Notes under the pieces: model-generated
The model's database searches: none
Told to the model about the DNA's origin: nothing
The model's input: the letters and a program-made list of their open reading frames with translations, nothing else
Assembly (NCBI GenBank): GCA_910585795.1
Contig: CAJUFV010000171.1
Location: forward strand, 8,501-72,500
Source: an uncultured Clostridia bacterium
GTDB taxonomy: Bacteria; Bacillota; Clostridia; UBA1381
Length of the DNA stretch: 64,000 nucleotides
Reading direction: 5' to 3'
Position numbers and translations under genes: made by a program
Part shown: positions 4,981-50,614 of the stretch, one piece after another
How the letters are laid out: each line of letters starts with the position of its first letter
Numbering within the stretch: the stretch's first letter is position 1

Positions 4981-5001
4981 ATTAATAATCTCCCTTGTTT
5001 A

Positions 5002-13517: not shown

Positions 13518-13613
13518 CTATGTCACCTTCCACCAATCTATATCACAATTCAGTATAACATAATATTCTTAAAAATGCAACGTTCAAAATTTATTGCAAT
13601 TTTTTTCTAAATT

Positions 13614-14147
13614 TTATCCCAATATTGCTTTTGCCTTAAGAATAGCGATAGCCGTTTTTGCGTCATAGATTTTATTGCCCATTACCATACTATATAATTC
13701 ATCAAGGTCATATTTCCTGACATTTAAAAATTCACCATCGTCAAGCTGCTGTCCTACAAATTCAAGATTTTCCGCAAGATAAATATTCAATTTCTCCTCA
13801 CAATAACCTGGAGTCGCGTAATACTCACCAAGATGTATAAACTCACCGCCTTTATAGCCTGTTTCCTCAATAAGCTCTCGTTTTCCGCACTCCAGCGGGT
13901 CCTCGCCGTACTCCAGCTTACCAGCCGGAATTTCCAGCATCATTGAGCGCGCGGCGATTCTGTACTGCTCAACCATAAAAACCTGACGGTTTTCATCTAC
14001 AGCTATAACACCCACACCGCCTGAATGCGCGATAAGCTCACGGTCTGCCGTTTTGCCGTCCGGCAGCTTAACTATTTCTTTGCGTACCTTTATTACTCTT
14101 CCGTCATAAATACTTTCCGTTGATATTGTTTTTTCCTCAAAATTCAT
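13614..14147 (-). CDS. ADP-ribose pyrophosphatase (NUDIX hydrolase)
   Basis: Nudix box GKLEYGEDPLECGKRELIEETGY. I chose the start at MNFEEK because of RBS AGGAGA. The longer ORF to 14177 would overlap the upstream gene. Confidence 0.85.
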   Translation of the reverse strand: MNFEEKTISTESIYDGRVIKVRKEIVKLPDGKTADRELIAHSGGVGVIAVDENRQVFMVEQYRIAARSMMLEIPAGKLEYGEDPLECGKRELIEETGYKGGEFIHLGEYYATPGYCEEKLNIYLAENLEFVGQQLDDGEFLNVRKYDLDELYSMVMGNKIYDAKTAIAILKAKAILG

Positions 14148-14164
14148 AGCTATTCTCCTATTCT

Positions 14165-25338: not shown

Positions 25339-25376
25339 AAAAAAAGCCTGCCGCCGGAAGAAATCCCGCGGCAGGC
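25339..25376 (-). terminator. Rho-independent terminator ending the phage-like late operon
   Basis: 9-bp GC-rich stem gcctgccgc (25346-25354) / gcggcaggc (25368-25376). On the minus strand it is followed by T7, which is the plus-strand A-run at 25339-25345. Confidence 0.8.
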
Positions 25377-25391
25377 AGAAAAATAAAATTT

Positions 25392-26189
25392 CTACTGAAG
25401 CTTCTGTGCCAGACGGTATATAACAACACAAGTCCATAGCTTTGTATTATCGAGACCAAGACCTTCTCCAGTACCTACAATAATACCATTATCCACACAC
25501 CACTGCACCGCTTCATGCGCCCATTCAGGCATATTACTGTCAATGTAATTATAAATAAACGGATTTTGCACCTTATACATTTCATTCTGCAAGACGTCTA
25601 TTCTCGCCTGTTCGGTAGAAATCATATTTTTAAGCTCCTCATACTGAGACATTGTAAGCTCCTCCTCCATTCTTTTTCCTATTATAGCATCGCAAATTGC
25701 CTGCGCGACTTCGTCCGCTCCCACTTTATGATACAGGTCGGCGTCTGACTGAGTATCAACAAAGCACACCTCTATCAGCATTGACCGCGCATTTGTTTTT
25801 CTTATTACATATAAATGCGAACCGTCTTTTATACCGCGGTTAATAAATCCAAGCTCCGCCATATTTTCACAAACAAGCTCAGCCGCTTCAAAACGCTGAC
25901 CGTTATAGGTATATACCTCTGTACCCCTTCCGCCGCCGCTGTTAAAATGTATCGACACAAACAAATCAAGCGGCTGCGCGTTTGCCTTAGCCACAATCTC
26001 CCTAAGATTTTCACCTACAGTTGGAGCATAATCGCTCGCGCAGTCGACAACTGTGACGCCGTTAGCGCGCAGTTTATCCATAAGTCTGTAACCAACCGCG
26101 CGGGTTTCATCACTTTCATTCAAATAACCAACCGCGCCGCTGCCTACAGTACCGCTTACTGTATGTCCGCAGTTTACTCCCACTATCAT
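25392..26189 (-). CDS. Endolysin: N-acetylmuramoyl-L-alanine amidase (Amidase_3) with a C-terminal putative wall-binding domain
   Basis: Amidase_3 blocks (VGVNCGH, FVSIHFNSGGGRGTEVY, LIEVCFVD). The C-terminal approximately 60 aa (PEWAHEAVQWCVDNGIIVGTGEGLGLDNTKLW) looks SLH-like, but that reading is tentative. Confidence 0.88.
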   Translation of the reverse strand: MIVGVNCGHTVSGTVGSGAVGYLNESDETRAVGYRLMDKLRANGVTVVDCASDYAPTVGENLREIVAKANAQPLDLFVSIHFNSGGGRGTEVYTYNGQRFEAAELVCENMAELGFINRGIKDGSHLYVIRKTNARSMLIEVCFVDTQSDADLYHKVGADEVAQAICDAIIGKRMEEELTMSQYEELKNMISTEQARIDVLQNEMYKVQNPFIYNYIDSNMPEWAHEAVQWCVDNGIIVGTGEGLGLDNTKLWTCVVIYRLAQKLQ

Positions 26190-26230
26190 CTATCTTCACC
26201 CCCGTTTTAATAATATGCCTTACTCTATTA

Positions 26231-26635
26231 TTATGTTACATCATTCCTATCTCTTAACTGAAGCAGTATATTTTTTAGTGAATCCGGCATCCTCGCGGAT
26301 GTGGCCGCGACGTTCTCAAGAATTGATATCCCCTCGTTAGCAAGATAAAACATTATAACTATCTCACGCACTGCCGCCGCACCGCCTGTTATAACCTGAA
26401 TTATATTAGCAAGCGCCACAATTATAAGAATAGTTATTTTTTTCAGTATACCCTTATAACCAGTTTCACTTGACAGTTTTTTTGTATATACCGCTTTAAT
26501 AATCCCCGTAATATAATCCATTGCCATAAGTATTACAAGCGCCCATAGTATGGTGTCCCACTGACCGAATATACCCGCGCATATTCCTCCGGCAACGCCT
26601 ATTAACACGCTTGCCGCATTAAAAATTTTATCCAT
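26231..26635 (-). CDS. Holin (phage_holin_4_1 / TcdE-like family)
   Basis: 134 aa with three TM helices and the MAMDYITGIIKA motif typical of this holin family. It lies directly upstream of the endolysin. Confidence 0.85.
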   Translation of the reverse strand: MDKIFNAASVLIGVAGGICAGIFGQWDTILWALVILMAMDYITGIIKAVYTKKLSSETGYKGILKKITILIIVALANIIQVITGGAAAVREIVIMFYLANEGISILENVAATSARMPDSLKNILLQLRDRNDVT

Positions 26636-28049
26636 TTGTAGCTATTTCCTTTCCGTTTATACATAATCTTCCGTTAGCGTTAACATTTATTGTATTTGCG
26701 CCTATTGTTATATTTTCCGCTGTAAGGTCACCGGTAAAATTCATTTTCCCGTCGGCACCGGTCTCAACCGCGCAGTTGCCGGCATTGTCTCTTATACGGC
26801 AGACAAATTGTCCGTTCTGATTTCCAAGCTGTACCTTAATAATACTTCCATTTGAAATTTTCAGCATATCTGAAAGCAGAGATAGCTCACCGGAATTACC
26901 GGAAAGTCTTATCCCTGAATTTGATATAACGCCGGCCACTGACTGCGCCTTCACAGTTCCATTTGATGTAGATATTTTAGCATAGCGTCTTGTAAGCGTT
27001 CCCATCTGTTCAAGATAAAAAAACAAATCACGCTTTACCCTTCCGATAGAAATAACACTGTTATCACTCTGATACGGATAATATTCGACCTTTATAACAC
27101 GCTCATGTATTTCATTTCCGTTATCAATAACTGTTATGCTGTCGCCTATTTCAGCTTTTTCTGCCGAGCCATACTGCGCAAGCTTAGATATATCTGCAAA
27201 TGTACCGGTTATATTAATACCAGGAACGTCAATACGTTCCTCATTCGTGCTGTCAAATTCCCACAAAGCGCGGCGCATAAGCTTGGACGGCTCCATATAA
27301 TCAGAATAGTCACGGTAACCGTCTCTAACTCCGTAAAGCTCCGCGTTCGCGCTCTGTATATAATGAACACCGCCGTTTACACTGCCGATATGAGCGTCAT
27401 CCTTTCCGTACGGATACAGACGCGTTACCATATCTGTTATATCACGCTCTACATTTATATTGCGCATATTTTTTGTAAGGTCAAGACGTATATGATTATC
27501 TCTGCCGATATGCTCAACAAGAGCCACCTTATAATTATCATTATATATCTCGCCTTTTCCGCAGTTTTCTATAACCGCTTTCATAACATCATACGGATTT
27601 GTCTTGTCCGTCGAAAAAAAATCTATCATAAACCCGTCATAATCAACGCGCTTCATACCAAGACGCGTAAGCTCGCTGTCACTCATAAGCGAAAATCTGC
27701 TTCCTGCAAATACCGCCTCCAATACCTCGCGTGGATTTACGCCAATCATGTCGGGAACATTCTGTATATGAATATTCGGGGCGTCCGAATTATAAATATG
27801 ATGACATTCCGCTTCAAGCATATTATCCTCTCCCCTGCTTCTGGAAACTCTGACAATTCGAAACGCCTGTCCCTCGCATACTATAAGCTTATTCTCTTCT
27901 ATCAGTCCTGATTTCTCATTCAGCGGATGTGAAAACTCAAGCATGTATGTACTGTTTATTTCTCTGGTAACCTTTACTCCGAAAGCATCGGGCAAAACTA
28001 TTCCCTTATTAAACGTCACACTGTTAAAAGGTAAAATTTTAAGCATCAT
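26628..28049 (-). CDS. Tail tip protein (Tal / prophage tail endopeptidase-like)
   Basis: 473 aa. The N-terminus (ILPFNSVTFNKGIVLPDAFGVKVTREINSTYMLEFSHP) matches the siphovirus tail-associated/endopeptidase-tail family. Its position after Dit fits that role. Confidence 0.75.
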   Translation of the reverse strand: MMLKILPFNSVTFNKGIVLPDAFGVKVTREINSTYMLEFSHPLNEKSGLIEENKLIVCEGQAFRIVRVSRSRGEDNMLEAECHHIYNSDAPNIHIQNVPDMIGVNPREVLEAVFAGSRFSLMSDSELTRLGMKRVDYDGFMIDFFSTDKTNPYDVMKAVIENCGKGEIYNDNYKVALVEHIGRDNHIRLDLTKNMRNINVERDITDMVTRLYPYGKDDAHIGSVNGGVHYIQSANAELYGVRDGYRDYSDYMEPSKLMRRALWEFDSTNEERIDVPGINITGTFADISKLAQYGSAEKAEIGDSITVIDNGNEIHERVIKVEYYPYQSDNSVISIGRVKRDLFFYLEQMGTLTRRYAKISTSNGTVKAQSVAGVISNSGIRLSGNSGELSLLSDMLKISNGSIIKVQLGNQNGQFVCRIRDNAGNCAVETGADGKMNFTGDLTAENITIGANTINVNANGRLCINGKEIATNG

Positions 28050-28881
28050 AGTCCCCCCAGTCTATTGTATCAAGATTAACCCCGTAATTAAATTCGGGTG
28101 TATACGAAACATCCAGCTTTACTAAATCACTTGTTGAATTTTCAAAATGCAGAATATTATTCCCCGCAGTAAATTCAAAAAATTCTCCGGTCACTCCGAC
28201 ATTGTTTCCGTTTACAGTCACGCTCTGTTTTTCAAAATCCGCTATACAGCTTCCGCCGCTGTCAAAGGAAATTGTTTTCCCGCCTAATGACAGAATAATA
28301 TTTCTGCCGCCATGTATACGTATGCTCGGACGCGCCGGACGCTCACCAAAGTTCCACACGGCAATATCCGTAGCGCCTGAAACTTCATAATGAACAGTCT
28401 CATCAAGCGAAATCGGAATATTATTGTCCAGCTTTATATCCATATCCAGTACAGGCCCGTCTGTACCGAAAATACACTTTCCAAAAGGACGTACACGCAC
28501 AGAAACCTCCAGCGCCGCATTTTTCCCTCCGTGATTCGGCATATAAATTATTTCATCTGATACTCTTCCATACCATACTGTATGAGGCATATCATCAAAA
28601 ATCAGTTCGCCTTTTCCCATAAGCCATCCGGAAATAAGTGACAGCTTATTCTGGAGCGTATATAAATTATCCTCGCACACATTTATAGTAATAATAAATG
28701 TTCTGTCATAAAAATATTCTCGCCCCGCCTGATTGGCCTCTGAAAAATCATACGCTCCGTCACGGCATGGAATATCAAGGGTATGAACCTTCGCTTCCGG
28801 ACGTATCGGTCTTGATTTTGTCTTTACAGTCACACCGAATTCCGAGGAATGCTTGTCCTTAAATTTAAAACCGTTTCTCAA
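28039..28881 (-). CDS. Distal tail protein (Dit, Sipho_tail family)
   Basis: 280 aa with N-terminal FKFKDKHSSEFGVTVKTKSRPIRPEAKVHTLDIPCRDGAYDF, typical of phage tail component/Dit proteins. It directly follows the tape measure gene. Confidence 0.8.
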   Translation of the reverse strand: MRNGFKFKDKHSSEFGVTVKTKSRPIRPEAKVHTLDIPCRDGAYDFSEANQAGREYFYDRTFIITINVCEDNLYTLQNKLSLISGWLMGKGELIFDDMPHTVWYGRVSDEIIYMPNHGGKNAALEVSVRVRPFGKCIFGTDGPVLDMDIKLDNNIPISLDETVHYEVSGATDIAVWNFGERPARPSIRIHGGRNIILSLGGKTISFDSGGSCIADFEKQSVTVNGNNVGVTGEFFEFTAGNNILHFENSTSDLVKLDVSYTPEFNYGVNLDTIDWGDYDA

Positions 28882-28894
28882 TCAATCACACTCC

Positions 28895-30631
28895 CTAGTT
28901 ATACTTACTATGGGCAATTGTTAATCCCACTCTGTTTTTCAGCGCGTCCACAATATCCGACGCGCTCGCGCTGATACTTATATTTCTGTTGTCGCTGAAT
29001 GAGCTCTGAGAAATGCTGATTGATTTTATCGCGCTGATAGTCTGCGCGAAAAGCGCGCTTATTGTATTTTCCAGATTGTTGACATCACAATTTACACTGC
29101 TTACTATTCCTTCTATATTCAGTCCTGACTGTTCAATAGTCGCAAGAAGATATTTTTTGTTTTTTTCAACTATGTCATAGCTGTTTTCCAGCAGCGCGAG
29201 TTTTTCACTATGCTCCTTTTGAAGCGCGAGCATTTCCTCCTCGCGTTTTATCTTCTTCATTTCCTCCTGAAGCGATTTGTATTTCTCAACGCCTCTTTCT
29301 GTTACCGCTCCCTTATATATTTCAAGCTGATGAGCGATTTCCGCCTTTGATTCAGCTCTGTCCGTATTTTTCCACTGCTCTTCAAGCGCCTTTTCCTCAT
29401 CCTCATACTGATTTTTTGTGTCCCTTATATAAGCCTTTTGCTTTAAAAGAAGCTCATCCACCTGCGCCATTTTAGCATCATATAAATTAAGTGTGGCCTC
29501 CATCGTATCATCTCTGTATTCCTGCCAGCCTATATGCTTTCCATCAAACATCTGCTGTATACGCTCTATGCTGCGCTCATAAAACTGAACCGGACTGTCT
29601 CCGGCCTCCTGCCAGTCATCATATGTATCTCGGATATTTTTCCAGTTTTTCGCGTCGCTTTTCCATTTCTCATACACGCCGTAACTTTTTTCATTCTCCA
29701 GCTTGCCTATTTTCAGGTCAACACCTGCTTTATATTCATAAAAATCATTCCATATTGCTTTCATTTCATCAGCGCTGTAAAGAGTCGACGCGGCCATCTC
29801 AGACACCATTGCATTATAATTTTCCTTCTGACGCTGATACGCCGCGATTTGCTCATCCACACCGGCGCCGTTTACCTCAACCTGATACTTTATCCACGCG
29901 TCAGAATTCTTTTTATAATCTGAAAGAGCTTCTGCGCTTTCCTGCTTCTGCGCTTTCCATATTTTCTGCTGCGCAGCAAATACTTCCTCCTGAATCTCTT
30001 TCACAACCTCGCTGTCATAGGAAAACTGCTCCATAAGTTCATTCCACCGTGCAAGCTCTTCCACAGGCGACATATTATGCGTCTTCTTATAATGGTTTAA
30101 ATCAGCTTTTTCAAATTCATAGAATTCATTATTTTTACCTCCGGCATAATGCGGTAGACCCATACCCTTCATAATTGCTTTTGTCTCGTCAGCGGTATAA
30201 ACCCTGTCTCCTCCGGACAGCGGTACAATAACATCACGTCCGCTGAACATCATAAGAGAACCGTTATGCTCAACAAGCTCCCTAGGGTCGCTTTTACCTC
30301 TTTCATCATTAATGACGGCAAGGCCTTCATCGGCATTACGCGTACCGCCTGCGAGAGCTGGCATACCCGCAACATTATACCGCACAGAGATTGTAACTGT
30401 CTTATCTGAAATACTGTTGATTTTAGCTCTTGCTGACTCAACTCCCGCGGCTGTATTATCAGCCGCGGTTAAATTAATTTTTGCCTCTTTTCCGCCAAAA
30501 TCCGTCATCACCTTACCGGCAGATGAATTGAGACGCGCTATCGCCGCTTCTGCCGCGCTAAGTGAGCTTAAAAGCCCTGACGCGTCACCGGTTATACTGA
30601 CAGATAAACTGGCCGCCTCTGCCATAATCAT
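28895..30631 (-). CDS. Tail tape measure protein (short, 578 aa)
   Basis: Largest ORF of the cluster and rich in helical/coiled-coil sequence. It lies immediately downstream of the G/GT chaperone pair and upstream of Dit. Confidence 0.75.
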   Translation of the reverse strand: MIMAEAASLSVSITGDASGLLSSLSAAEAAIARLNSSAGKVMTDFGGKEAKINLTAADNTAAGVESARAKINSISDKTVTISVRYNVAGMPALAGGTRNADEGLAVINDERGKSDPRELVEHNGSLMMFSGRDVIVPLSGGDRVYTADETKAIMKGMGLPHYAGGKNNEFYEFEKADLNHYKKTHNMSPVEELARWNELMEQFSYDSEVVKEIQEEVFAAQQKIWKAQKQESAEALSDYKKNSDAWIKYQVEVNGAGVDEQIAAYQRQKENYNAMVSEMAASTLYSADEMKAIWNDFYEYKAGVDLKIGKLENEKSYGVYEKWKSDAKNWKNIRDTYDDWQEAGDSPVQFYERSIERIQQMFDGKHIGWQEYRDDTMEATLNLYDAKMAQVDELLLKQKAYIRDTKNQYEDEEKALEEQWKNTDRAESKAEIAHQLEIYKGAVTERGVEKYKSLQEEMKKIKREEEMLALQKEHSEKLALLENSYDIVEKNKKYLLATIEQSGLNIEGIVSSVNCDVNNLENTISALFAQTISAIKSISISQSSFSDNRNISISASASDIVDALKNRVGLTIAHSKYN

Positions 30632-30858
30632 ACCTCCTCACCGTAAAACATTCTCAAATGCTCATTTTTATATTCCTTCTCCGTATCATCCTCCATAGCG
30701 TCAAGCATACGGAACATAACCCACGGATTTTGTCTGCCCACCTCGTCAGGCAGCAAATGATGGCACTGGAACAAAATAGGATAAATATCTCTCAAAGTGC
30801 CTCTGCCGCCTGACGTCACCCGTTTTTTGCGCTTAGAGCGTCTACATAAAAGCCCCAT
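30628..30858 (-). CDS. Tail assembly chaperone, T-extension ORF (expressed as a G-T fusion by -1 frameshift)
   Basis: This ORF is in the -1 frame relative to the upstream G ORF and overlaps it by 43 nt. It has no independent RBS, and its stop overlaps the tape measure start. Confidence 0.6.
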   Translation of the reverse strand: MGLLCRRSKRKKRVTSGGRGTLRDIYPILFQCHHLLPDEVGRQNPWVMFRMLDAMEDDTEKEYKNEHLRMFYGEEV

Positions 30859-31085
30859 AACTCAATGCACATCTTTGCTCTTTCGCCTATATCCAGACTG
30901 TCAATAATATCCTGTGTGGCTTCTGTCCCCTCAAACATATAATCCACCGCTTCACGGCAGATATTCAAAGGACCGTTTTTTTTATCGTCATTATGCGCGT
31001 CATTTATAATACACATAGCCTCAAAATCGAACGGCTTTGAAATATATTTCTGTTTATCTTTTGTAAATGTCAATGTGTGCTGCAT
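30816..31085 (-). CDS. Tail assembly chaperone (gpG-like)
   Basis: 89-aa acidic protein lying between the major tail gene and the tape measure gene. It carries the slippery site at its 3' end. Confidence 0.75.
   Translation of the reverse strand: MQHTLTFTKDKQKYISKPFDFEAMCIINDAHNDDKKNGPLNICREAVDYMFEGTEATQDIIDSLDIGERAKMCIELWGFYVDALSAKNG
30822..30828 (-). promoter_or_regulatory. Programmed -1 ribosomal frameshift slippery heptamer A_AAA_AAC
   Basis: The minus strand reads gcA AAA AAC ggg tga in the G frame. A -1 slip gives aaa aaa cgg gtg acg, which is the T frame. The site is 2 codons before the G stop. Confidence 0.65.
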
Positions 31086-31143
31086 ATTTTTCTCCTTTGT
31101 TTCTTATTACTAATTATTATCTAAAGTATAATGTTATTTTTAT

Positions 31144-31168
31144 CAGGCGCGGTCACTGACCGCACCTG
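31144..31168 (-). other. Intercistronic RNA hairpin after the major tail protein gene
   Basis: On the minus strand, caggtgcgg / ccgcgcctg forms a 9-bp stem including one G-U pair that is valid only in the minus-strand transcript. The loop is 7 nt. There is no U-tract. Confidence 0.4.
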
Positions 31169-31197
31169 TAATTGCAAATATAATCAATAATTTTATC

Positions 31198-31797
31198 TTA
31201 CTGTACTTCCGGATAATAGTTCATATCCGTAAACCAGTTTTCCTCAAAGCTCTCTCTTGAAATCCCCTCAGGCAGGTCGCTTTCGTCAAAGTACGCGTAA
31301 TAATTATTATCAAAATCACGCTGAAGAGCCGTATATGTCGCTTTAGCCGTCTGTCTGTCAATACTTCCATTGGACGGTTTTGTTTTACCGCCCACATTTG
31401 AAGCAAAGCTGTATGAGCCTTTATAATATCTAACATAACGGTATGAACCGTCCGACTTTAATATTCTCCACGCAACGCCAAAGTAAACCGTCTTTGTATC
31501 GTTGCCCACCTCAACAACGCCATTTTTCTGTGTAAGACCTCTCCACATTGCGTCAACCTCAGGCGGAATGTCAGCGTTTGTTATATCATGTCCAAGCTTT
31601 TCAATATAGCTTGTTGTCTCATACGCGCCGTTATCCGCGTCAAACACGTCAGCTCCGCCGGCGTCTGTCGGCGTAATCTCGACAGTTCCCTTTAGGTTGT
31701 AGGCCTCGCCGTACTGAACGCCGCTTTCCGCGTCAGACATCAGTTTAAAAAATGTATACTTGTCCACACCGATTGTAGGTAATGGTCTTTTAATCAT
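31198..31797 (-). CDS. Major tail protein (phi13/TP901-1-like family)
   Basis: 199 aa with N-terminal GVDKYTFFKLMSDAESGVQYGEAYNLKGTVEITPT, typical of the phi13-family major tail proteins of non-contractile tails. Confidence 0.85.
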   Translation of the reverse strand: MIKRPLPTIGVDKYTFFKLMSDAESGVQYGEAYNLKGTVEITPTDAGGADVFDADNGAYETTSYIEKLGHDITNADIPPEVDAMWRGLTQKNGVVEVGNDTKTVYFGVAWRILKSDGSYRYVRYYKGSYSFASNVGGKTKPSNGSIDRQTAKATYTALQRDFDNNYYAYFDESDLPEGISRESFEENWFTDMNYYPEVQ

Positions 31798-31859
31798 ATA
31801 TTCTTCCTCCGTTTATTATTTTTTTGTCTTAAGTAATTTTTAAAGCGTTTTAAGTTCAT

Positions 31860-32207
31860 TTATAAAGTAAAGTACTTTTGAAATCTCATTGTTCTGTGAT
31901 AAACCTTTTCATTTCTTTTGGGAACATCCATAGACATCTCCCTCGTCCAGCCGTCTTTCTCCATTACACTATTCACCCGCACAGAAATATCAGCACATTC
32001 TTTAGGAACCGCTGACCATATATCAACCTGTACATAGCCGTTTTGTATACACTCGCTGTTATCCGCATAAAAAGCGCCTTTTTCTTTAAGATTATAATAG
32101 CTTATAACCGGCAGTCTGTTAAATGCTTCCGGATACTGATATACAACCTTGCAGTTAAGCTCTGAAAGTGTTCTTTGGGCTTCAGTATTTATATCAATCA
32201 TAAGCAA
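31860..32207 (-). CDS. Tail terminator / tail completion protein (positional call)
   Basis: 115-aa ORF between the HK97 gp10-like gene and the major tail gene. Size and position fit a tail terminator. I recognised no decisive motif. Confidence 0.5.
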   Translation of the reverse strand: MLMIDINTEAQRTLSELNCKVVYQYPEAFNRLPVISYYNLKEKGAFYADNSECIQNGYVQVDIWSAVPKECADISVRVNSVMEKDGWTREMSMDVPKRNEKVYHRTMRFQKYFTL

Positions 32208-32214
32208 GTCCTCC

Positions 32215-32550
32215 TTAAATATCAGTTATTGCCTGAGCCATAGCCTCAAGCACTGCCGCTTCACTATCTATAAGAGACGGAATCAGATACGGCTGCGGAG
32301 ACATTTTCGAGGTACCGAATTCAACATATGCGGCATAATCTGTGTCTGCGTAAATTTCCGCTCTTCTGCCGTCACATTCCGCTCCTATTGACTCTCTAAG
32401 TGTTCCGGTATCAACAGGACATGCCGCTTTCGCATTATCACATACACACTGCGCTCCCGCGGCAATGATTGTTTCTATACTTTCTGATAATCTCGCGGAT
32501 ACCTCAGATAAACCCCCGTCATATGTAATATCAATGCCCATCCTCAACAC
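32215..32550 (-). CDS. HK97 gp10-family head-tail joining protein
   Basis: VDTGTLRESI ... YAAYVEFGTSKMSPQPYLIPSL matches the HK97 gp10 family signature. Confidence 0.8.
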   Translation of the reverse strand: MLRMGIDITYDGGLSEVSARLSESIETIIAAGAQCVCDNAKAACPVDTGTLRESIGAECDGRRAEIYADTDYAAYVEFGTSKMSPQPYLIPSLIDSEAAVLEAMAQAITDI

Positions 32551-32851
32551 CTCTCATCACTGCGGTAAGACCTAAACGACATTTGTCACTTCTTACAATT
32601 CTATACCAGTCTCCGCTGAACAAAACATATCTTCCAGCTATTAAAATATCATTTTTATCCGTAAATATTTTATAAGCCTTGTTTTCCGCAAAGCCGTATT
32701 CACTGCTTTCCATATCTCCTCCACAATGCTGTACATCACACGCGATTGTCCCGATAAAATTTTTTTCGCCTTTTCTTTCGTATGTGTTTTCTTCTGCCTC
32801 ATACACGTTTATTTCGGTATCATAAAATCTGTTAAACGGATTCATTGTCAC
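32531..32851 (-). CDS. Head closure / head-tail adaptor protein
   Basis: 106 aa ending in a WYRIVRSD-type motif common in phage head-tail adaptor (gp16/gp7-like) proteins. It overlaps both neighbouring genes. Confidence 0.7.
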   Translation of the reverse strand: MTMNPFNRFYDTEINVYEAEENTYERKGEKNFIGTIACDVQHCGGDMESSEYGFAENKAYKIFTDKNDILIAGRYVLFSGDWYRIVRSDKCRLGLTAVMRGVEDGH

Positions 32852-33200
32852 TCTCCTTTACAGCAATATCGGACGGCAGCTTTACATTCCTTGACACAAA
32901 AGGCTTAAGACGCTCCGCGTATTCACTCAAAAAATTATTTTTTCCTTCCGCATATTCCACACGTCTTTCTCCCTCTGTAACAGATTTTACACCCTCCCGC
33001 ATATTCAGCCGATAGCGCTCGGCAGTAAGCGTAGGAATAAGGCTGACAAGCGTACGAGGAAGCACATCAAGACGACAGTACGAAAGTACAGCGTTCACAG
33101 TATCATCAATCAGAAGCATAAGCAATTCATCATTTTTTTCATCTTTTATTTCCAGAAGCGTTTTCGCCGCATCAAGAATTTCTATTTTAGTGTCCTCCAC
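32832..33200 (-). CDS. gp6-like head-tail connector protein
   Basis: 122 aa with N-terminal AKTLLEIKDEKNDELLMLLIDDTVNAVLSYCRL, typical of the Phage_connect_1/gp6-like family. It lies directly after the capsid gene. Confidence 0.75.
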   Translation of the reverse strand: MEDTKIEILDAAKTLLEIKDEKNDELLMLLIDDTVNAVLSYCRLDVLPRTLVSLIPTLTAERYRLNMREGVKSVTEGERRVEYAEGKNNFLSEYAERLKPFVSRNVKLPSDIAVKESDNESV

Positions 33201-33223
33201 AATTCACACAGCCTTTCTTTTTA

Positions 33224-34084
33224 TTACGCGCCGGTAGCTTTTGAAGCCTCTGAAGTGCCTGCCGAGGCCGTACTTTTAAACACATAAATTGATTTTTTCT
33301 TATTATTGAGCACGAATGCGTCATAATACACTCTTCCCTCTACAAGCCAGCCATTTATTCCGGGAGGGTTATCATGAATTTTATACTCAGACAGCTTTAC
33401 CGGAGATGTTGTGGCAGCCTGATTTACTATAATAAGCTCAACACCCTCAGGGAAATATGACGAAGGAACAATAACAACTGGAATACCGTCAACAGTACCC
33501 ACCTGACCCTTTATAAGCATTTCCTGCGACATATCGCCGTTTCTTATAAAGCTTGAGTCCTCCTTAATATTTTTATAAAAACTTGGAGATACAAACGCGC
33601 AGCATCCCGCAAGCGGAACATTCTCTTCAATAAGCGCGGCTGTTCCTGTAAGGAATATATCATATGCCGTTGTTTTTGACACTGTTCCCGTAGCTGTAGT
33701 TCCCGCGCCGGCACAAATTTTTTCAAAACGATACTTGTCAATCTCAGGTATAACCACCTCGCGGAGTTGTCTCTGGAGAGCCGCCCCCGCCGCGTTTGAC
33801 ATCTGCGTATCATTATATGTCCCCCTGTCAATTGTAAATGTAAAACTCCTGTCCTGCGACATTGTCATTTCCTGTATAGTATTGTCCAGCTCCTGCGGAG
33901 TTCCGTAGCGACTTGTTCCGCTTACGGAATAATCATTCATCTTAGCCGTAGGAACACTGTATACATTAACTGTTTTCGCACCGACAAAATCATAATCATT
34001 ATTTACTGCCTGTGAAGTCATTGATTCTCTGGCAAATTTTTCGTCAATTTTCTGAGCATATTTGCTTGCATAGTTTATAGCCAT
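33224..34084 (-). CDS. Major capsid protein
   Basis: 286-aa ORF immediately after the scaffold gene, preceded by a strong RBS region. Its composition and position are typical of SPP1-like, protease-less head modules. Confidence 0.8.
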   Translation of the reverse strand: MAINYASKYAQKIDEKFARESMTSQAVNNDYDFVGAKTVNVYSVPTAKMNDYSVSGTSRYGTPQELDNTIQEMTMSQDRSFTFTIDRGTYNDTQMSNAAGAALQRQLREVVIPEIDKYRFEKICAGAGTTATGTVSKTTAYDIFLTGTAALIEENVPLAGCCAFVSPSFYKNIKEDSSFIRNGDMSQEMLIKGQVGTVDGIPVVIVPSSYFPEGVELIIVNQAATTSPVKLSEYKIHDNPPGINGWLVEGRVYYDAFVLNNKKKSIYVFKSTASAGTSEASKATGA

Positions 34085-34111
34085 TATATTTTCATCCTTT
34101 CCGTATATAAA

Positions 34112-34675
34112 TTACATTCCGAGTCCTGTTAAAAATGGGTCACCCGCTTGTTCGCTTTCTCTCGAAACACGCGGCGGATTTCCTTTTAGTCTGTGGGAAA
34201 GTCCGTCTTCAATCGCTTTCATGTATTCCGCCTTGAAAATGCTGATGTTTTCCATCATAACCTCTTTGTCATTATCAGCAATCATTCCCGCAAAGCTTAC
34301 AGGAAGATTCTGAGCAGCAAGCTCCTTAGCCGCTTCAAATTCAGCTCTTTCACTCATATACTGCTGTCTTTCTGTCTCAAAATTCTTCTCTCTTTTATCC
34401 ATTTCAGCTCTGGCCCTTTCCTCTGACGACATAGTCGCCAGCTTTGCGGCCTCCTCGCGTTCAGAGCTTATTCTAGCTTCAAAATCCTTTTCCCATAAGC
34501 CTCTTTCATTCTTAACAGCCTCACTGACATATTTTTCAATAAGTGATTTTAACTCGTTGTTTTTATGTCCCCCATTATTCTCGGAAGCATTATTTTTCTC
34601 TTTTTCATTTTCTTTAAGATTATTTAGTGTCCCTTTATTTTTTCTTTCGTTCATTTTTTCTGTAACTCCTTTCAT
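34112..34675 (-). CDS. Scaffolding protein (DUF4355-like)
   Basis: 187 aa, highly charged and helical (EREEAAKLATMSSEERARAEMDKREKNFETERQQY). It sits between the portal and capsid genes. Confidence 0.75.
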   Translation of the reverse strand: MKGVTEKMNERKNKGTLNNLKENEKEKNNASENNGGHKNNELKSLIEKYVSEAVKNERGLWEKDFEARISSEREEAAKLATMSSEERARAEMDKREKNFETERQQYMSERAEFEAAKELAAQNLPVSFAGMIADNDKEVMMENISIFKAEYMKAIEDGLSHRLKGNPPRVSRESEQAGDPFLTGLGM

Positions 34676-34709
34676 AAAACATCACAGCGTAAAATATTTT
34701 AGCGTCCCC

Positions 34710-36023
34710 TTACTCTGACGCGGCATTCATATTTTCATTTAGCATGCGTTCCTTTGAAGCAAGCTGCGCTTCCTCCTTAGGGTCGCCGACAAATGAAAGC
34801 TGTGAAAGCAGTGTCTCGCTTGTGGCAATCCCTGACAGATTGCGTATCATCTGTGAAACCTCAAGCTCGTTAACCGGCAGATTTCTTGTAAACACAACGT
34901 CAATCCTGTGCATCGGAACGTATTCCATCGCGCCCTTTAGTGAAAGAAAATTCACATACAGCTCAAAGCGTCTTTTCAGTGATTTTGTAAAATACCGCTC
35001 CTTATTTCTCACATGCTGCTCAAAGCCCATAAGCTTATATTTTATCGCCACACCCGATAAATTTGTTCCAAAGGTTTGTTCTGTAAGGTCCGGTATCATT
35101 GAAAAACGATGTATATCCATTTTAAGACTGTTTTTCAGCACCTCAATATCACTTTCAGACATAACCTTTGACAAATATCTTGCGTCCGCGCCTTCATAAC
35201 CCATAAGTATTCGTTCCTCACGCAGCTTTCTGGCCTGCTCGCTGTCAATATCAATATTAGTCAGAAATAAAAACGCGTCCACAAACTGTTCTTTATCGTT
35301 CACTCTGTCTGACTCCAGAATATTATAGGCGTCTATAAGAGGAATAAGCTGTTCAAAATCCCCCTGCCTCTCCTCGTTATTACGATACTCCACAAGCGGC
35401 ATAGCTCCGAAATAATGACGCTGCTTTTCCGCAAGACGCATATTCGAGAAGCTGTCGGTATCGTTTTCATATGTATAAATCATATTTGCATCGCAGACAA
35501 CACAGCATACTCCGGTAATATTTCCGTCAATATCACGCTTTCTGTAATAATGTATGCCGTAAAGAGGCATTTCGCCAACACCCGCTCCATACACGATAAA
35601 TGTGTTAGTCGGAGGCAGAGACACACTTTTAGGCTGCGACATATCATCCGCGCATATCAGTTCATATGCTTTACCGTAAATGCTCATATTTTTTTCAAGC
35701 TCGGCGTCAATGCTTGCCATATCCTGAACGGAAAAGCTATTCTTAACCGCCTCAATATCATACCCGTCGGAACAGGTATATGAAACAGGATTACCCACAA
35801 GATAGCTTTTCGCAATATCAACTATATATTTTGCATGATTGCATACTACCCTGTTATTTGCGACAGCTCCGCTGTAACGCCGGCGTTCGCATATAGCATG
35901 CTTTCCTATATAATAATTATATAATTTTTCATATCGCTCCTGCTCCAGAGCATGCCTTGAAATCAGCTTGGCAAGTATTGTACCGGTAATACCGTCCTTT
36001 AGAATTTCTTCATCAATAATCAT
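34710..36023 (-). CDS. Portal protein (SPP1 gp6-like family)
   Basis: 437 aa with blocks such as YYIGKHAI, NHAKYIVDIAKSYLVGNPVSY and GVAIKYKLMGFE. It follows the large terminase gene. Confidence 0.9.
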   Translation of the reverse strand: MIIDEEILKDGITGTILAKLISRHALEQERYEKLYNYYIGKHAICERRRYSGAVANNRVVCNHAKYIVDIAKSYLVGNPVSYTCSDGYDIEAVKNSFSVQDMASIDAELEKNMSIYGKAYELICADDMSQPKSVSLPPTNTFIVYGAGVGEMPLYGIHYYRKRDIDGNITGVCCVVCDANMIYTYENDTDSFSNMRLAEKQRHYFGAMPLVEYRNNEERQGDFEQLIPLIDAYNILESDRVNDKEQFVDAFLFLTNIDIDSEQARKLREERILMGYEGADARYLSKVMSESDIEVLKNSLKMDIHRFSMIPDLTEQTFGTNLSGVAIKYKLMGFEQHVRNKERYFTKSLKRRFELYVNFLSLKGAMEYVPMHRIDVVFTRNLPVNELEVSQMIRNLSGIATSETLLSQLSFVGDPKEEAQLASKERMLNENMNAASE

Positions 36024-36051
36024 TTGTACATTCCTTTCTGTAAACTTAATA

Positions 36052-37329
36052 CTATATGTTCAGTTCACTTCTTTTGATAATTCTTGCTTTTCTGTGATTA
36101 ATTTCCTCTTCCAGCGCGTAACGCACGGCATCAATAGTATGATTGTTTTTATCGGGATAATCTGACCTGAATTCACCGTCTGTACCGCGCTCAAGCTCAT
36201 ACTCAGAAAACTCTCTTGCCGCATTTGGACATGTGACAGGGTCAATAATAATTTTCCTGAGTCCCTGCAAAAAATGTATTCCGTACTCAATACTGTCAGG
36301 ACCTTTTTTAGCGCCTCTTGCTCTAAGTCCAAATGACCTTAAATCATTTATACTCTTCGGCTCCGCGCTGTCACAAATAATTATCCTGTCTGTAAAGGCT
36401 TTTTCATAGATTTTTTCCGCGGCCGCGCTGTTGCTCATTCCCTTCGCGTAAATTTCGTCCAGAATAAATAAAACATCGTTATGAAAATAACATACCATAT
36501 ATACAAAGGGGTCAGCCGCAAATCCAAAATCTATTCCGCATTTCACATTATCAAACATATTTCTTTCAGAATCCGTAATTTCGCGTATATCAAGATTATC
36601 AAAAATCTCTCCGCCGGTACCTGTAACTTCACCGAGATATTCATGCCTGTACCTATCAGGATATAACTTTTTTAGATACTCTGCTTCCAAAAAAAATTGT
36701 TCTCCCAGCCACTTACGAGGCACATCAAGGTAAGTACTTTTATGTATAAGCATATCGTCTCTTTCATTAAGAGCTTCACGATTCACCCAGCTGCGACGGT
36801 TTTGAGGAGGATTATATGAATAGAAAACAGTATATTTTTCACCGCCGCGCATCATTGATTGATTAATTGAGCGAATTTCTCTCATTCCGTAAAATTCGTC
36901 CAGCTCCTCATACCAGATATATCTTATATAACCGTTTGTTACCTTTGTTGACTTTAGCTTCTGCACCTTATCCGCACCGCGGAACAAAATTTTCTGTCCC
37001 GTTTTTTTATAAATCATTTCAGGGATGCTGGGTTTTATATCCCATAAATCTGATACTCCCAGCTTTTCTATAGCCCATTCCAGCTGTGCGAACACGCTGT
37101 CACGCAGATATGCTCCTACCTTTCTCAAGGCAACAGCATTTGTAAGAGGATTTTTCATTATTCCGAGGATAATTTCAATACTGACAAAGCTTGATTTTGT
37201 CGACCCTCGTCCGCCGCAAAGCCAGAAATGCGTATAATCCTCTATAGACATATGTACTGTATAAAAGGCAGGCGCAATAATCAAATCAAGACTGCGTTTT
37301 TCTGATTTTTTCCGCAATGTTATCCACAA
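36052..37329 (-). CDS. Terminase large subunit (PBSX/Terminase_3-like)
   Basis: Walker A CGGRGSTKSS, Walker B-like IWYEELDEF, and C-terminal nuclease blocks (GIDFGFAADP, HTIDAVRYAL). The start is uncertain (TTG 37329 or a downstream TTG). The ORF overlaps the TerS fragment by up to 44 nt. Confidence 0.9.
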   Translation of the reverse strand: MWITLRKKSEKRSLDLIIAPAFYTVHMSIEDYTHFWLCGGRGSTKSSFVSIEIILGIMKNPLTNAVALRKVGAYLRDSVFAQLEWAIEKLGVSDLWDIKPSIPEMIYKKTGQKILFRGADKVQKLKSTKVTNGYIRYIWYEELDEFYGMREIRSINQSMMRGGEKYTVFYSYNPPQNRRSWVNREALNERDDMLIHKSTYLDVPRKWLGEQFFLEAEYLKKLYPDRYRHEYLGEVTGTGGEIFDNLDIREITDSERNMFDNVKCGIDFGFAADPFVYMVCYFHNDVLFILDEIYAKGMSNSAAAEKIYEKAFTDRIIICDSAEPKSINDLRSFGLRARGAKKGPDSIEYGIHFLQGLRKIIIDPVTCPNAAREFSEYELERGTDGEFRSDYPDKNNHTIDAVRYALEEEINHRKARIIKRSELNI

Positions 37330-37543
37330 TCACAACATCACTGACTTCATTCTGATGTCTGTCTCCAAACATTCCGTAATACTTGCCCAGAAGCTCCGCC
37401 GCCTTAAAGGAATCAGAAAATTTTATATTTTCCTCGGCATAGCCCTCCTGCCGCATTACATCAGTAAAAAACTCCAGAATTTCTTTTTCATCAGCAATAG
37501 TTATAATTATCATTCCTTTCATTGTAATAAAGAAATAAAACAC
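37286..37543 (-). CDS. Small terminase fragment: C-terminal half of a Terminase_2-type TerS, N-terminal HTH domain absent
   Basis: ADEKEILEFFTDVMRQEGYAEE...SFKAAELLGKYYGMFGDR matches the conserved core/C-terminal motif (..ELLGK..GMF..) of Terminase_2 small subunits. The ORF has at most 85 codons and no convincing SD for any of its candidate starts. Confidence 0.55.
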   Translation of the reverse strand: MFYFFITMKGMIIITIADEKEILEFFTDVMRQEGYAEENIKFSDSFKAAELLGKYYGMFGDRHQNEVSDVVIVDNIAEKIRKTQS

Positions 37544-37582
37544 CGTAATCTAATACACAGTTCATTTTCATATCACTTCCTT

Positions 37583-37783
37583 TTAAAATAAAACATCTGT
37601 CCTGTACACACATTCACTGCAGCCTATACATTCCTCATCCTCATCCATATAATAGAATTCAGGCGTTTCAGCTTTGCATACAGGACATACGCTTACATGT
37701 CTGTCATCACAGCTTCCGTAATTTTCCGTACGCTCCATTTCCATTGCAAGAAGCGCCATCGGGTCATCATTTGTATAAATCAT
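37583..37783 (-). CDS. Small Cys-rich zinc-ribbon protein, first gene of the late operon
   Basis: 66 aa with CPVCKAE...CIGCSEC (two CxxC pairs). A strong RBS (GAAAGGAG) lies 5 nt upstream of the ATG. Confidence 0.55.
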   Translation of the reverse strand: MIYTNDDPMALLAMEMERTENYGSCDDRHVSVCPVCKAETPEFYYMDEDEECIGCSECVYRTDVLF

Positions 37784-37865
37784 TTGTACTCCTTTCTATC
37801 TTTTTCAGATACTTTCGCTTTAAAAATTTTTATCATAAGTGCCGGCTATTCCTTAAGATATTGTG

Positions 37866-37894
37866 ATTATATCATAAAAAGATACTTTAGTCAA
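37866..37894 (-). promoter_or_regulatory. Near-consensus sigma-A promoter for the phage-like late operon
   Basis: The minus strand reads TTGACT (37889-37894)-N17-TATAAT (37866-37871). Repeat copies at 37881-37888 and 37893-37900 fall in the spacer and over the -35. Confidence 0.55.
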
Positions 37895-37964
37895 TACTTT
37901 GTATAATTTTAGGATACTTTGTACAATATTCTGTTGTATTTTCAGATACTTTTTTGTTTATCTA

Positions 37965-37993
37965 TTGCAAAAAGTTTCAAATTATGATACTAT
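37965..37993 (+). promoter_or_regulatory. Candidate promoter for the repressor gene
   Basis: TTGCAA (37965-37970)-N17-TACTAT (37988-37993). The -10 coincides with the sixth repeat copy. Confidence 0.4.
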
Positions 37994-38077
37994 ATATATG
38001 AAAACTAATAAAATCTCATAAATTATCAATATACATATACAAAACACCTGACTGAAAAAAACAAAGGAGAATATTAT

Positions 38078-38704
38078 ATGACTACAGGAGAAAGAATTAA
38101 AAGACTTCGCAAGGAACATAATTTAACTCAGGAAGAGCTTGGAGCACATCTGGGCATACAGAAAGCCGCGATACAAAAATATGAAAAGGGTACTGTAACA
38201 AACATTAAACGTGACTCTCTTATAAAGCTTGCGCAAATTCTGGACACAACACCGGAATATCTCTTAGGCTGGGAAGACACACCATCTAATATTGAAGCCT
38301 TTGACACGTCGGATTTTATAAATATACCTATAATAGGCAGAGTTGCCGCCGGTACTACCTGTTTTGCAGATAATAATATCGTAGATTATGAACCGGTACA
38401 TAGAAGCAATATAACAAACGGTGAACAATACGCTTTTTTGAGAGTTGTGGGCGACAGTATGTATCCTGTATTTATGGAGGGTGACCTTGTGCTTGTGCGC
38501 TGTCAATCCTCCGTAGACAACGGCAGCTACGCAGTAGTTACGATTGACGGCGAGGACGGCGTTGTAAAAAAAATCATATATGGAAATGATTTTATTGAGC
38601 TTCATTCCATAAATCCGATGTACCCGCCGCGGCGTTTTGAAGGTGAGGAGGTTCTGCGAATACGTGTATTCGGCCTTGTCAAGGAAATTAAAAGAAAATT
38701 TTAG
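38078..38704 (+). CDS. cI/LexA-like self-cleaving repressor (XRE HTH + S24 peptidase)
   Basis: N-terminal HTH_XRE (ERIKRLRKEHNLTQEELGAHLGIQKAAIQKYEKG). It carries a LexA-type cleavage region IPIIGRVAAGTT (Ala-Gly), the Ser nucleophile in VVGDSMYP and Lys in GVVKKI. RBS AAAGGAG lies upstream. Confidence 0.88.
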   Translation: MTTGERIKRLRKEHNLTQEELGAHLGIQKAAIQKYEKGTVTNIKRDSLIKLAQILDTTPEYLLGWEDTPSNIEAFDTSDFINIPIIGRVAAGTTCFADNNIVDYEPVHRSNITNGEQYAFLRVVGDSMYPVFMEGDLVLVRCQSSVDNGSYAVVTIDGEDGVVKKIIYGNDFIELHSINPMYPPRRFEGEEVLRIRVFGLVKEIKRKF

Positions 38705-50582: not shown

Positions 50583-50614
50583 GTTCGATTTTTTAGCTCC
50601 TTTCAGCACACTGT

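Follow-up and report, generated by a model that had tools for sequence, protein, structure and literature searches.

Gene Content of the Locus

A compact phage-like element was analyzed in a 64-kb stretch of DNA from an uncultured Clostridia bacterium (contig CAJUFV010000171.1), called the window below; all coordinates are positions in this window. The element occupies 25339–38704. It consists of one minus-strand block of genes, an operon of about 12.4 kb that runs from 37783 down to 25392, and a divergent repressor gene (Rep) beside it, according to the listing of open reading frames (ORFs) and family scans. As judged from its sequence, the element is a vertically inherited, probably SOS-induced locus for a siphovirus-type particle, and the DNA packaged in the particle would most likely be that of the host.

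The proteins of the window were assigned by scans against Pfam, PHROG and NCBIfam (Table 1). The gene list and coordinates of an earlier sequence-only reading were borne out by the ORF listing and these scans. The large terminase subunit (TerL) scored 125.4 with the NCBIfam model TIGR01547 ("PBSX family"), above the cutoff of 105.05, and the Walker A motif GGRGSTKS was seen in its translation. The tail assembly chaperones G and T gave no match in the Pfam, PHROGs and NCBIfam scans. A slippery heptamer, A_AAA_AAC, is placed at 30828–30822, 6 nt ahead of the G stop, and the T frame continues in −1. Tal is probably also the receptor-binding protein of the particle.

Table 1. Features of the element, with positions in the 64-kb window and the basis of each assignment
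Feature	Position	Strand	Basis
Rep repressor, XRE-type helix-turn-helix (HTH) and S24 domains	38078–38704	+	Pfam HTH_3 E=2.4e-14, Peptidase_S24 (PF00717) E=7e-26; phrog_4 E=9e-43
Putative Rep promoter, TTGCAA, 17 nt, TGaTACTAT; −10 holds a GTATC half-site	37965–37993	+	predicted; 8/12, below the scan threshold
Divergent regulatory region between Rep and operon	37784–38077	.	sequence; orthologous regions compared
Operon promoter, TTGACT, 17-nt spacer, TGaTATAAT (extended −10)	37866–37894	-	sigma-70-like scan
Operator palindrome O1, GTATCTTTTTATGATA	37870–37885	-	overlaps promoter spacer and −10; same place in the closest clade
Operator palindrome O2, GTATCTGAAAAAGATA	37797–37812	-	just upstream of the Znr ribosome-binding site
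Znr, 66-aa C4 zinc-ribbon ORF, first gene of the operon	37583–37783	-	no match in Pfam, PHROG or NCBIfam
Mini-TerS, 78 aa from the ATG of the gene callers	37286–37522 (ORF 37286–37543)	-	Terminase_2 and phrog_51, C-terminal part only
TerL, headful type, PBSX/SPP1-like	36052–37329	-	Terminase_3 E=3.7e-39, Terminase_3C E=4.6e-20
Portal, SPP1 gp6-like	34710–36023	-	PF05133 E=6.5e-102
Scaffold, DUF4355	34112–34675	-	PF14265 E=3.5e-25
Major capsid protein	33224–34084	-	phrog_422 E=5e-67
gp6-like head-tail connector	32832–33200	-	PF05135 E=2.8e-9
Head-closure or head protein (weak assignment)	32531–32851	-	phrog_939 E=1.7e-4; position kept across loci
HK97 gp10-like tail-completion protein	32215–32550	-	PF04883 E=2e-11
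Tail terminator	31860–32207	-	phrog_78 E=2.3e-19
Major tail tube protein, phi13 type, non-contractile	31198–31797	-	phrog_88 E=2.8e-27; TIGR01603 score 71.6, cutoff 35.2
Tail assembly chaperones G (30816–31085) and T (30628–30858)	G-T span 30628–31085	-	sequence; −1 frameshift
Tape measure protein, 578 aa	28895–30631	-	phrog_167 and phrog_1293, E about 4e-17; orthologues of similar length
Dit (Sipho_tail/SPP1_Dit)	28039–28881	-	PF05709 E=3e-7, PF22768 E=9e-5
Tal, tail-associated lysin-type tip protein	26628–28049	-	PF06605 E=8e-27, PF18994 E=1e-8
Holin, Phage_holin_4_1	26231–26635	-	PF05105 E=1e-37
Endolysin, N-acetylmuramoyl-L-alanine amidase (Amidase_3), weak SLH-like C-terminus	25392–26189	-	PF01520 E=2.8e-27
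Intrinsic terminator of the operon: GC-rich hairpin (GCCTGCCGC, loop, GCGGCAGGC), then TTTTTTT, read from 25376 to 25339	25339–25376	-	read from sequence; partly caught by the scan

Conservation and Selection

One genome per species (GTDB) was scanned with the capsid protein, which gave 52 loci, and the window proteins were mapped onto these by tblastn. A divergent Rep and an operon in the same order were found in 33 loci, and about eight more hold an element cut by contig ends. The architecture of about 13 kb is thus carried by about 40 species of one gut Clostridia lineage. The span from Rep to the lysis genes was 12.6–15.2 kb in most loci uncut by a contig end. Record titles name Hominilimicola (placed in Oscillospiraceae by NCBI), Monoglobus, Candidatus Ornithomonoglobus and unclassified Clostridia metagenome-assembled genomes (MAGs). 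These unclassified MAGs came from mouse, rabbit, human, chicken and ruminant guts. The record of L003, "Lachnospiraceae bacterium MD329", carries no MAG label and may therefore stem from an isolate.

Stop-to-stop ORF lengths were about 1.0 times those of the window for almost every gene in every locus. The ratio dN/dS, calculated by the pairwise Nei-Gojobori method for nine locus pairs, was 0.00–0.51 for element genes and mostly below 0.3, including Znr, the small terminase subunit (TerS) and Rep; for the flanking genes it was 0.05–0.11 (M16 peptidase) and 0.06 (purE). The dS of the element was about that of the flanks. Between the window and L001, most element genes gave 0.85–1.7, and M16 and purE gave about 1.0. 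Since dS reaches 1–2, very recent independent insertions are excluded. Among 15 taxa sharing the M16 neighbor, the mean protein distance of the element followed the M16 distance (Mantel r = 0.95, reached by 0 of 5000 permutations). Fine features were also kept: in 41 of 41 loci, T is read in the −1 frame of G, and 34 of these loci have an A_AAA_AAN heptamer 6–9 nt before the G stop.

The element thus shows vertical inheritance and purifying selection across a host clade, as known for gene transfer agents (GTAs). Domestication rather than decay had been proposed from the packed, uninterrupted genes of the window, and the same gene order in about 40 species, the intact ORFs, the low dN/dS and the co-divergence with M16 agree with it. 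Retention of the fine features held as well, for the frameshift site, the promoter and the operators are conserved across loci. Sequence comparison therefore gives strong evidence that the element was domesticated and is not decaying.

A rival reading takes the locus for an inert remnant of a prophage, without its early region and persisting by chance. In its favor, the gene content is that of the late region of a temperate siphophage, and defective prophages are common. This reading does not account for 18–19 genes all intact in about 40 species under dN/dS mostly below 0.3, or for a promoter, operators, a frameshift site and a terminator that are all conserved. Intermediate stages of decay were absent from the loci, save one assembly: in L185:1-12686, a copy next to M16, every gene is split into short ORFs, but the host M16 gene is split too, which indicates an indel-ridden assembly and not decay. 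Because of the intact ORFs, low dN/dS, co-divergence and conserved fine features, an inert remnant is excluded for practical purposes and is regarded as highly improbable.

A different observation was made in L005 ("Oscillospiraceae bacterium Zagget12"), where the tape-measure match at 13373–15107 had 0.85 times the length and an internal stop in the aligned stretch. This is the sole candidate decay event among the good-quality loci.

Small Terminase Subunit

Every locus has a small ORF in the place between Znr and TerL. It is 50–106 aa long, with a conserved core of 50–78 aa, and the motif EILEF.T..MR...K.SD..KAAE.L.KYYGMF....VVIVDDI occurs in all loci but L031, for which only a 30-aa C-terminal TerS ORF was listed. 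The protein of the window covers positions 108–139 of 141 in Terminase_2 and positions 149–238 of 261 in phrog_51, and aligns to residues 70–139 of the 166-aa TerS of Listeria phage LP-110. A profile of 20 such proteins matched SF6 TerS (3ZQP) at residues 83–106 and 123–160 of 164 (E=4.8e-10). No alignment of the protein with the TerS of Clostridium phage XP41-N3 (115 aa) was obtained by BLASTP.

In phages whose TerL is 52–63% identical to that of the element, TerS has 144–153 aa and includes an N-terminal domain. The first 65 residues or so of these phage proteins align with the N-terminal part of SF6 TerS (G1P), which is its DNA-binding domain, and this part is absent from the mini-TerS. What had been called a TerS fragment is instead a conserved small TerS, intact in all loci but L031, for which sequence comparison strongly indicates the lack of a DNA-binding domain.

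The terminase and portal families of PBSX/SPP1 type are headful packagers. With a TerS that lacks the DNA-binding domain, non-specific headful packaging of the unexcised host chromosome would be the most economical reading of these sequences. A TerS that lies directly upstream of TerL, is 10–50% shorter than its phage counterparts and keeps the C-terminus for contact with TerL has been proposed as the hallmark of GTA terminases (PMC6854486). The TerS of FpGTA likewise has no obvious DNA-binding domain (PMC12946183). The element has such a shortened TerS upstream of TerL, with a core of 50–78 aa against the 144–153 aa of the related phages.

Repressor and Regulatory Region

Rep contains the putative cleavage site Ala91-Gly92 and the catalytic residues Ser127 and Lys164, so that the site and dyad read earlier from the translation stand. 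The Ser-Lys spacing is 37, the same as in E. coli LexA. Rep thus has the sequence features of a LexA/CI-type S24 repressor (Ala-Gly site, Ser/Lys dyad and LexA-like spacing). It adjoins the operon in 33 loci with 58–88% identity. Rep was also considered as the LexA of the host. This was rejected, as its HTH is of XRE type while LexA has a winged helix, and its TIGR00498 score of 70 lies below the cutoff of 111; it is also disfavored by the fact that Rep moves with the operon where the neighborhood changes.

The operon promoter was the top sigma-70-like match (11/12, with TG) between 25000 and 39000, and TTGAC[AT]-17-TA[TA]AAT was found in 31 of 33 orthologous intergenic regions. The sequence GTATC-N7-GATA occurs only twice in the window, and both copies fall inside the 294-bp Rep/operon intergenic region. 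In 22 of the 33 regions, a [GA]TATC-N7-GATA palindrome precedes the first gene by 28–42 nt, and palindrome sites recur at matching places in most of the 33. The word RGATACTTT occurs four times in the Rep/operon region against 1.24 expected in the whole window. Additional GTATC half-sites run toward the putative Rep promoter, a block that is kept in the close clade. No sigma-like, ArpU/DUF1492 or other late activator gene was found in the locus.

The logic of a repressor and a late operon, as proposed before, fits a near-consensus promoter overlapped by a conserved palindrome. From these sites and the S24 domain we infer that Rep would bind the palindromes and that its RecA-stimulated self-cleavage would derepress the operon directly.

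In the distant clade, the promoter spacer holds a conserved CGAAC-N4-GTGTG or CAAAC-N4-GTTCG (CGAACAAATGTGTG or CAAACAAACGTTCG) in place of the GTATC palindrome. Such sequences were seen in the spacer upstream of Znr in L017, L018, L020–L023, L030–L033, L036, L038, L041 and L052. The Firmicutes LexA (Cheo) box is CGAAC-N4-GTTCG. Because of this resemblance, direct control by host LexA in addition to Rep might be speculated for the distant clade.

Two perfect GTATC-N7-GATAC palindromes about 42 nt apart were observed at L063:3198-3256, in a phage contig that encodes a TerL of 63% identity to that of the element. This phage may have a related repressor/operator system.

Flanking Genes and Absence of Mobility Genes

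By family scans, the left flank comprises purE, a GNAT gene, purD, purM, purN and IMP cyclohydrolase, and the right flank an M16 peptidase, IreB, two purF-like genes and MatE. The description of both flanks as core genes (purE on one side; M16, ireB and purF on the other) was therefore right. The GC content was 0.414 in the element and 0.405 in host DNA, the mean GC at third codon positions (GC3) was 0.394 in both, and the tetranucleotide distance of the element was inside the range of host segments. The lack of a compositional break between element and flanks, judged by eye before, was thus confirmed by GC, GC3 and tetranucleotides.

No integrase, replication, Cro or antirepressor gene was recognized in the locus by family scans. 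The earlier claim that such genes are missing stood for recognizable genes, and Znr could be placed in no family. No direct repeats of attachment (att) type were found across both borders of the element, and in a megablast search the 13.4-kb region matched none of 50,697 phage genomes. A functional temperate prophage would have int/xis, att sites, replication genes and a Cro/antirepressor switch, and here only a repressor was found. Phage satellites (phage-inducible chromosomal islands, PICIs, and capsid-forming PICIs) have their own integrase and replication initiator or primase and rely on a helper phage for heads or tails; they are likewise not matched, as integrase and replication genes are lacking and the head, tail and lysis set is full. 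An F-type tailocin is tail-only, while the element keeps capsid, scaffold, portal, TerL and TerS under purifying selection. Its gene content, in the window and with the flanks examined in the 33 loci, is that of a structural cluster unable to excise, integrate or replicate alone, as described for GTAs.

The flanks of the orthologous loci, examined by family scan, carry host housekeeping genes on both sides. On the Rep side, M16 and IreB were found in 15 loci and a SNF2-family helicase in four; other loci have Tgt/QueA, LeuA, DpaA or a class-V aminotransferase. In L022 and L023, Rep is adjoined by a homologue of the window gene at 49770–50609, which lies about 11 kb off in the window. On the lysis side, purE is kept in the window, in L001 and in the more distant L017. 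A tyrosine or large serine integrase was found in none of the 33 loci. A metagenome scan with the flanking M16 gene gave four close relatives, one of which showed the element while the others were too short or poor to judge, and 76 distant outgroups without the element.

Some loci differ in arrangement. In L030, and in that locus only, a 197-aa small serine recombinase (Resolvase domain, 4940–5533) adjoins Rep. In L045:1-6450, the operon and a Rep-M16-IreB block are separated by about 5.7 kb and stand in opposite relative orientation, with host genes between them (among them, by eye, DAHP synthase, prephenate dehydratase and TadA). This arrangement is consistent with an inversion. As both Rep and the operon are intact there, Rep would have to act in trans.

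Between Tal and the holin/lysin genes, 0.9–3.5 kb of extra sequence was seen in L017 (16476–19199), L018, L028, L031–L033, L036, L038 and L048, and possibly encodes additional fibers or receptor-binding proteins. In L017, an Amidase_2+SLH enzyme stands in place of the Amidase_3 endolysin. In view of the extra sequence and this replacement, the plasticity of the element lies in its tip and lysis modules.

Phage Relatives and Head Size

Phages with a capsid protein 45–58% identical to that of the element have genomes of 34–43 kb, and those at or above 50% identity have 34–39 kb. The phages with the nearest capsids include Streptococcus Javan phages, Geobacillus phiOH2 and Clostridium phage XP41-N3. 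XP41-N3 has the nearest characterized TerL (48%) and a capsid of 50% identity, and carries about 65 genes including replication and recombination genes. By analogy with the phages of 50–58% capsid identity, the heads of the element are probably of normal size, about 35–40 kb, and larger than the 13-kb locus. It had been expected that the particles would be too small for a phage genome, and this was not supported.

The finding of the same structural module inside a complete prophage of a close relative had been named as evidence against domestication. The only such relative found was the prophage-like region L047:1-20813, on the same MAG contig as L006. It carries a VapE-type primase/helicase, a SNF2 helicase, a DUF1492 regulator and a different TerL, as well as a 153-aa full-length TerS (GP3_package) and a MuF-like minor head protein. 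Its tape measure has 1727 aa, and its tube protein, of 293 aa, includes an SbsC-like C-terminal domain. Its portal (61–64% identity) and capsid (64–71%) are about equally distant from all element lineages. This equidistance makes it an outgroup and not a recent parent, and a single old domestication would fit these distances.

The tube protein of L047 is 68–83% identical overall and 82–83% identical to the clade of the window, far closer than the other L047 proteins. This closeness may reflect module exchange.

In IMG/VR, the element itself was found in two fragments only; one of them, L062, includes M16 of the host flank. The other TerL relatives there (63% identity or less) lie in ordinary phage contigs with different structural modules.

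These data also bear on whether the element is a mobile or helper-dependent mini-phage or satellite. Such an element would be packaged whole and recombine into homologous flanks, or would borrow the integrase or replication functions of a helper. A full-size head would hold the 13-kb locus plus flanks, the neighboring genes vary among deep clades, and related complete prophages occur in the same genomes (L047 with L006; L035 with L036); one locus also has the small resolvase next to Rep. However, integrase, att sites and replication genes were found in none of the 33 loci, the protein distances mirror those of host M16, dS matches the flanks, and the composition is host-like. The varying neighborhoods look like local rearrangements of one ancestral site, in which purE, M16 or a nearby gene is kept and L045 has an inversion, and the two IMG/VR fragments, one with a host flank, also speak against it. 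Mobility was therefore judged improbable.

Comparison with Known Systems

The TerL of the element and that of PBSX of Bacillus subtilis belong to the same NCBIfam family, TIGR01547. PBSX is chromosomal, does not excise and is induced by DNA damage; a repressor is combined in it with one late operon for morphogenesis and with lysis genes, and the producer lyses. It is about 28 kb long, with a contractile tail, an Xre repressor without S24 domain and the sigma-like factor Pcf/Xpf, and it packages 13 kb, less than its own size. The element, in contrast, has 13.4 kb, a non-contractile tail (phi13-type tube, G/GT) and a repressor with its own S24 domain. A near-consensus sigma-70-type promoter was found and no sigma-like activator, and the heads are probably larger than the locus. 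No sheath gene was present, and the phi13-type tube, G/GT, Dit and Tal make up a siphovirus tail. In place of an Xre repressor and a sigma-like factor, the locus has an HTH_3+S24 repressor and no sigma-like gene. PBSX packages host DNA (PMC12946183).

The likeness to PBSX raises the alternative that the element is a killer particle, a headed bacteriocin. It would be domesticated, induced by the SOS response and kept for killing related competitor strains by adsorption and a tape measure/Tal channel, and the packaged DNA would be an undelivered by-product. The PBSX-like logic of repressor, late operon and lysis genes agrees with this, as does a TerL that passes the "PBSX family" model. The tip proteins Dit and Tal were the most divergent of the element (mean distance 0.47 and 0.37, against 0.14–0.19 for tube, capsid and portal), and their dN/dS was somewhat higher (0.12–0.24 for Dit), as expected of receptor arms races; tip and lysis genes are swapped or added in some clades. 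Fast evolution of the tip is equally expected, however, of a GTA that recognizes its own species. The tail is non-contractile and has no sheath gene. Head, portal, terminase and TerS are selected as strongly as the tail, which would be a needless cost for a pure tail weapon, although PBSX is alike in this. On balance, a killer particle was considered rather unlikely.

FpGTA of Faecalibacterium prausnitzii, a gut Clostridia commensal, is present almost throughout the genus of its host (Borodovich et al. 2026, PMC12946183). It is podovirus-like, with two operons of 10.5 kb and about 5 kb that lie about 125 kb apart, and packages fragments of 8.4–8.9 kb (PMC12946183). Both systems have a phage-derived packaging and head cluster, in which a TerS without DNA-binding domain lies upstream of TerL, portal, scaffold and capsid. 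By its description, FpGTA differs from the element, which is a siphovirus-type single operon with its own lysis genes and repressor in another host lineage.

With RcGTA and other alphaproteobacterial GTAs, the element shares a vertically inherited head-tail cluster under purifying selection, the lack of integration and replication genes and a siphovirus-like tail. RcGTA has dispersed loci for lysis, head spikes and tail fibers and is governed by the host regulators CtrA and GafA and by quorum sensing; its heads are small, with about 4 kb of DNA, and its head module is of the protease-type HK97 kind. The element is instead self-contained and controlled by a phage repressor, with a DUF4355 scaffold in its head module. 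The likeness in size to RcGTA that had been pointed out is coincidental, and no homology to RcGTA was shown. GTAs of the RcGTA type also have a shortened TerS directly upstream of TerL (PMC6854486).

A preprint describes a terminase and structural cluster of about 14 kb in a Coprocola MAG from the murine gut as a candidate GTA core without integration or replication genes (bioRxiv 10.64898/2026.07.08.737213). DNA of this MAG was enriched in virus-like particles, and the lysis genes form a separate cluster of 3.6 kb (bioRxiv 10.64898/2026.07.08.737213). In the parts of this source consulted, neither a repressor nor comparative evolutionary evidence was described. On this partial description, the element is set apart by lysis genes and a repressor within the locus and by another host family.

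L047, XP41-N3 and the Javan phages have proteins homologous to those of the element and the same structural gene order. They differ by 34–39-kb genomes with replication, recombination and regulatory genes and by a full-length TerS; the MuF-like protein, long tape measure and longer tube of L047 are missing from the element.

GTA-like packaging of host DNA is reported, from long-read sequencing of gut virus-like particles, to be common among gut Clostridia, where most of the gene clusters responsible are unidentified, and FpGTA is the only cluster tied to it so far (PMC12946183). A full-text literature search found no paper on this element family or on Hominilimicola prophages. The element would work like PBSX or a GTA yet belongs to no described family, FpGTA and the Coprocola cluster being compared by their descriptions.

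Proposed Mode of Action

The element is best read as a domesticated siphovirus with virion genes, lysis genes and one CI/LexA-like repressor, which is fixed in a lineage of gut Clostridia and serves as a GTA-like generalized transducer. This reading was considered fairly probable.

The GTATC-N7-GATA(C) palindromes are seen in the promoter spacer and −10 and before the first ribosome-binding site, and Rep dimers bound to them would hold the operon off. Upon DNA damage, active RecA would stimulate Rep to cleave itself at Ala91-Gly92 by means of Ser127 and Lys164, as its intact S24 domain suggests. A single transcript of about 12.4 kb would then extend from 37.87 kb as far as the terminator (25.34 kb). 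Proheads would be assembled from portal, DUF4355 scaffold and capsid protein. The headful TerL would act with a TerS of about 65–78 aa that keeps the oligomerization and C-terminal segments but has no DNA-binding domain, and this motor would fill the heads with the DNA at hand, the unexcised and unreplicated host chromosome. Connectors, tube, G/G-T, the 578-aa tape measure (for a tail of about 85–90 nm), Dit and Tal would make the non-contractile tail, and holin and amidase would lyse the producer cell. The released particles would be a built-in generalized transducer of GTA-like kind, with heads of about 35–40 kb by analogy with the related phages.

Several points weigh against this reading. 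A head that is probably of full size would depart from known GTAs, in which the packaged DNA is shorter than the DNA encoding the particle. The tape measure of L005 may be disrupted, as a pseudogene or by an assembly error. M16 is physically linked to the element, and joint transfer of the region also fits the co-divergence. Purifying selection and co-divergence are also expected for a PBSX-like killer particle, or for genes kept for another reason. Znr, a first gene that matches no family, also occurs in large phages, and regulation may be more complex than a simple repressor switch.

A more specific proposal may be put forward tentatively. The element would be a lineage-wide, single-operon, SOS-triggered GTA of siphovirus type, with a recognition-less terminase and full-size heads that move chromosome pieces of about 35–40 kb, and with the acidic Znr, which large virulent phages share, as a further regulator or an anti-nuclease or anti-defense factor. 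If true, it would be a high-capacity generalized transducer under its own CI-like repressor and a GTA family independent of RcGTA, BaGTA, VSH-1, PBSX and FpGTA.

As a candidate from another lineage, the element is unusually clean, with one promoter, one repressor and one operon; it also offers about 40 orthologues for comparison and a TerS that is minimal by nature. It opens questions on the path from phage to host organelle, on the role of a TerS without DNA-binding domain, and on whether SOS-inducing drugs drive exchange of large gene fragments or strain killing among gut commensals. Prophage predictors call such elements "incomplete prophage"; the arrangement of Znr, mini-TerS and PBSX-type TerL next to an HTH-S24 repressor can serve as a search signature.

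Znr and Other Observations

Znr has a net charge of about −12, a C4 ribbon, an invariant N-terminal motif and 23 invariant columns, and was found in every complete element locus. Its homologues fall into 145 unnamed clusters, and most of those examined belong to the element. Further homologues, of 50–53% identity, were located at L186:10001-10201, L187:10001-10201, L188:8001-8204 and L189:8001-8204, in large phage-like contigs whose length reaches 118 kb and which encode DnaG, Pol III alpha, NrdD/G, ClpP, Mom and a DNA methylase. There, the gene for a 3D-domain (PF06725) protein always directly follows the Znr homologue, and the stretches seen contain no terminase gene. An AlphaFold2 model of Znr from an alignment of 33 sequences had a mean predicted local distance difference test (pLDDT) score of 59.6, too poor for a fold search.

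Znr was considered as a terminase accessory that replaces the lost DNA-binding domain of TerS. This was weakened by the phage-contig homologues, which stand among DNA-metabolism genes with no terminase seen. Instead of serving the terminase, Znr is probably a regulator or a factor directed at the host or at defense, and might for example be an anti-repressor or a DNA mimic.

A flip of GC skew at about 38 kb was considered as a replication origin and rejected, since the skew tracks gene strand across the window. Scans of the whole window gave no tRNA and no Rfam match, including no purine or ZTP riboswitch and none upstream of purE. The element lies amid purine-biosynthesis genes: to its left are purE, purD, purM and purN, and to its right purF occurs twice. 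The two purF-like genes stand in tandem at 40592–41977 and 42026–43444, and each has GATase and phosphoribosyltransferase domains.

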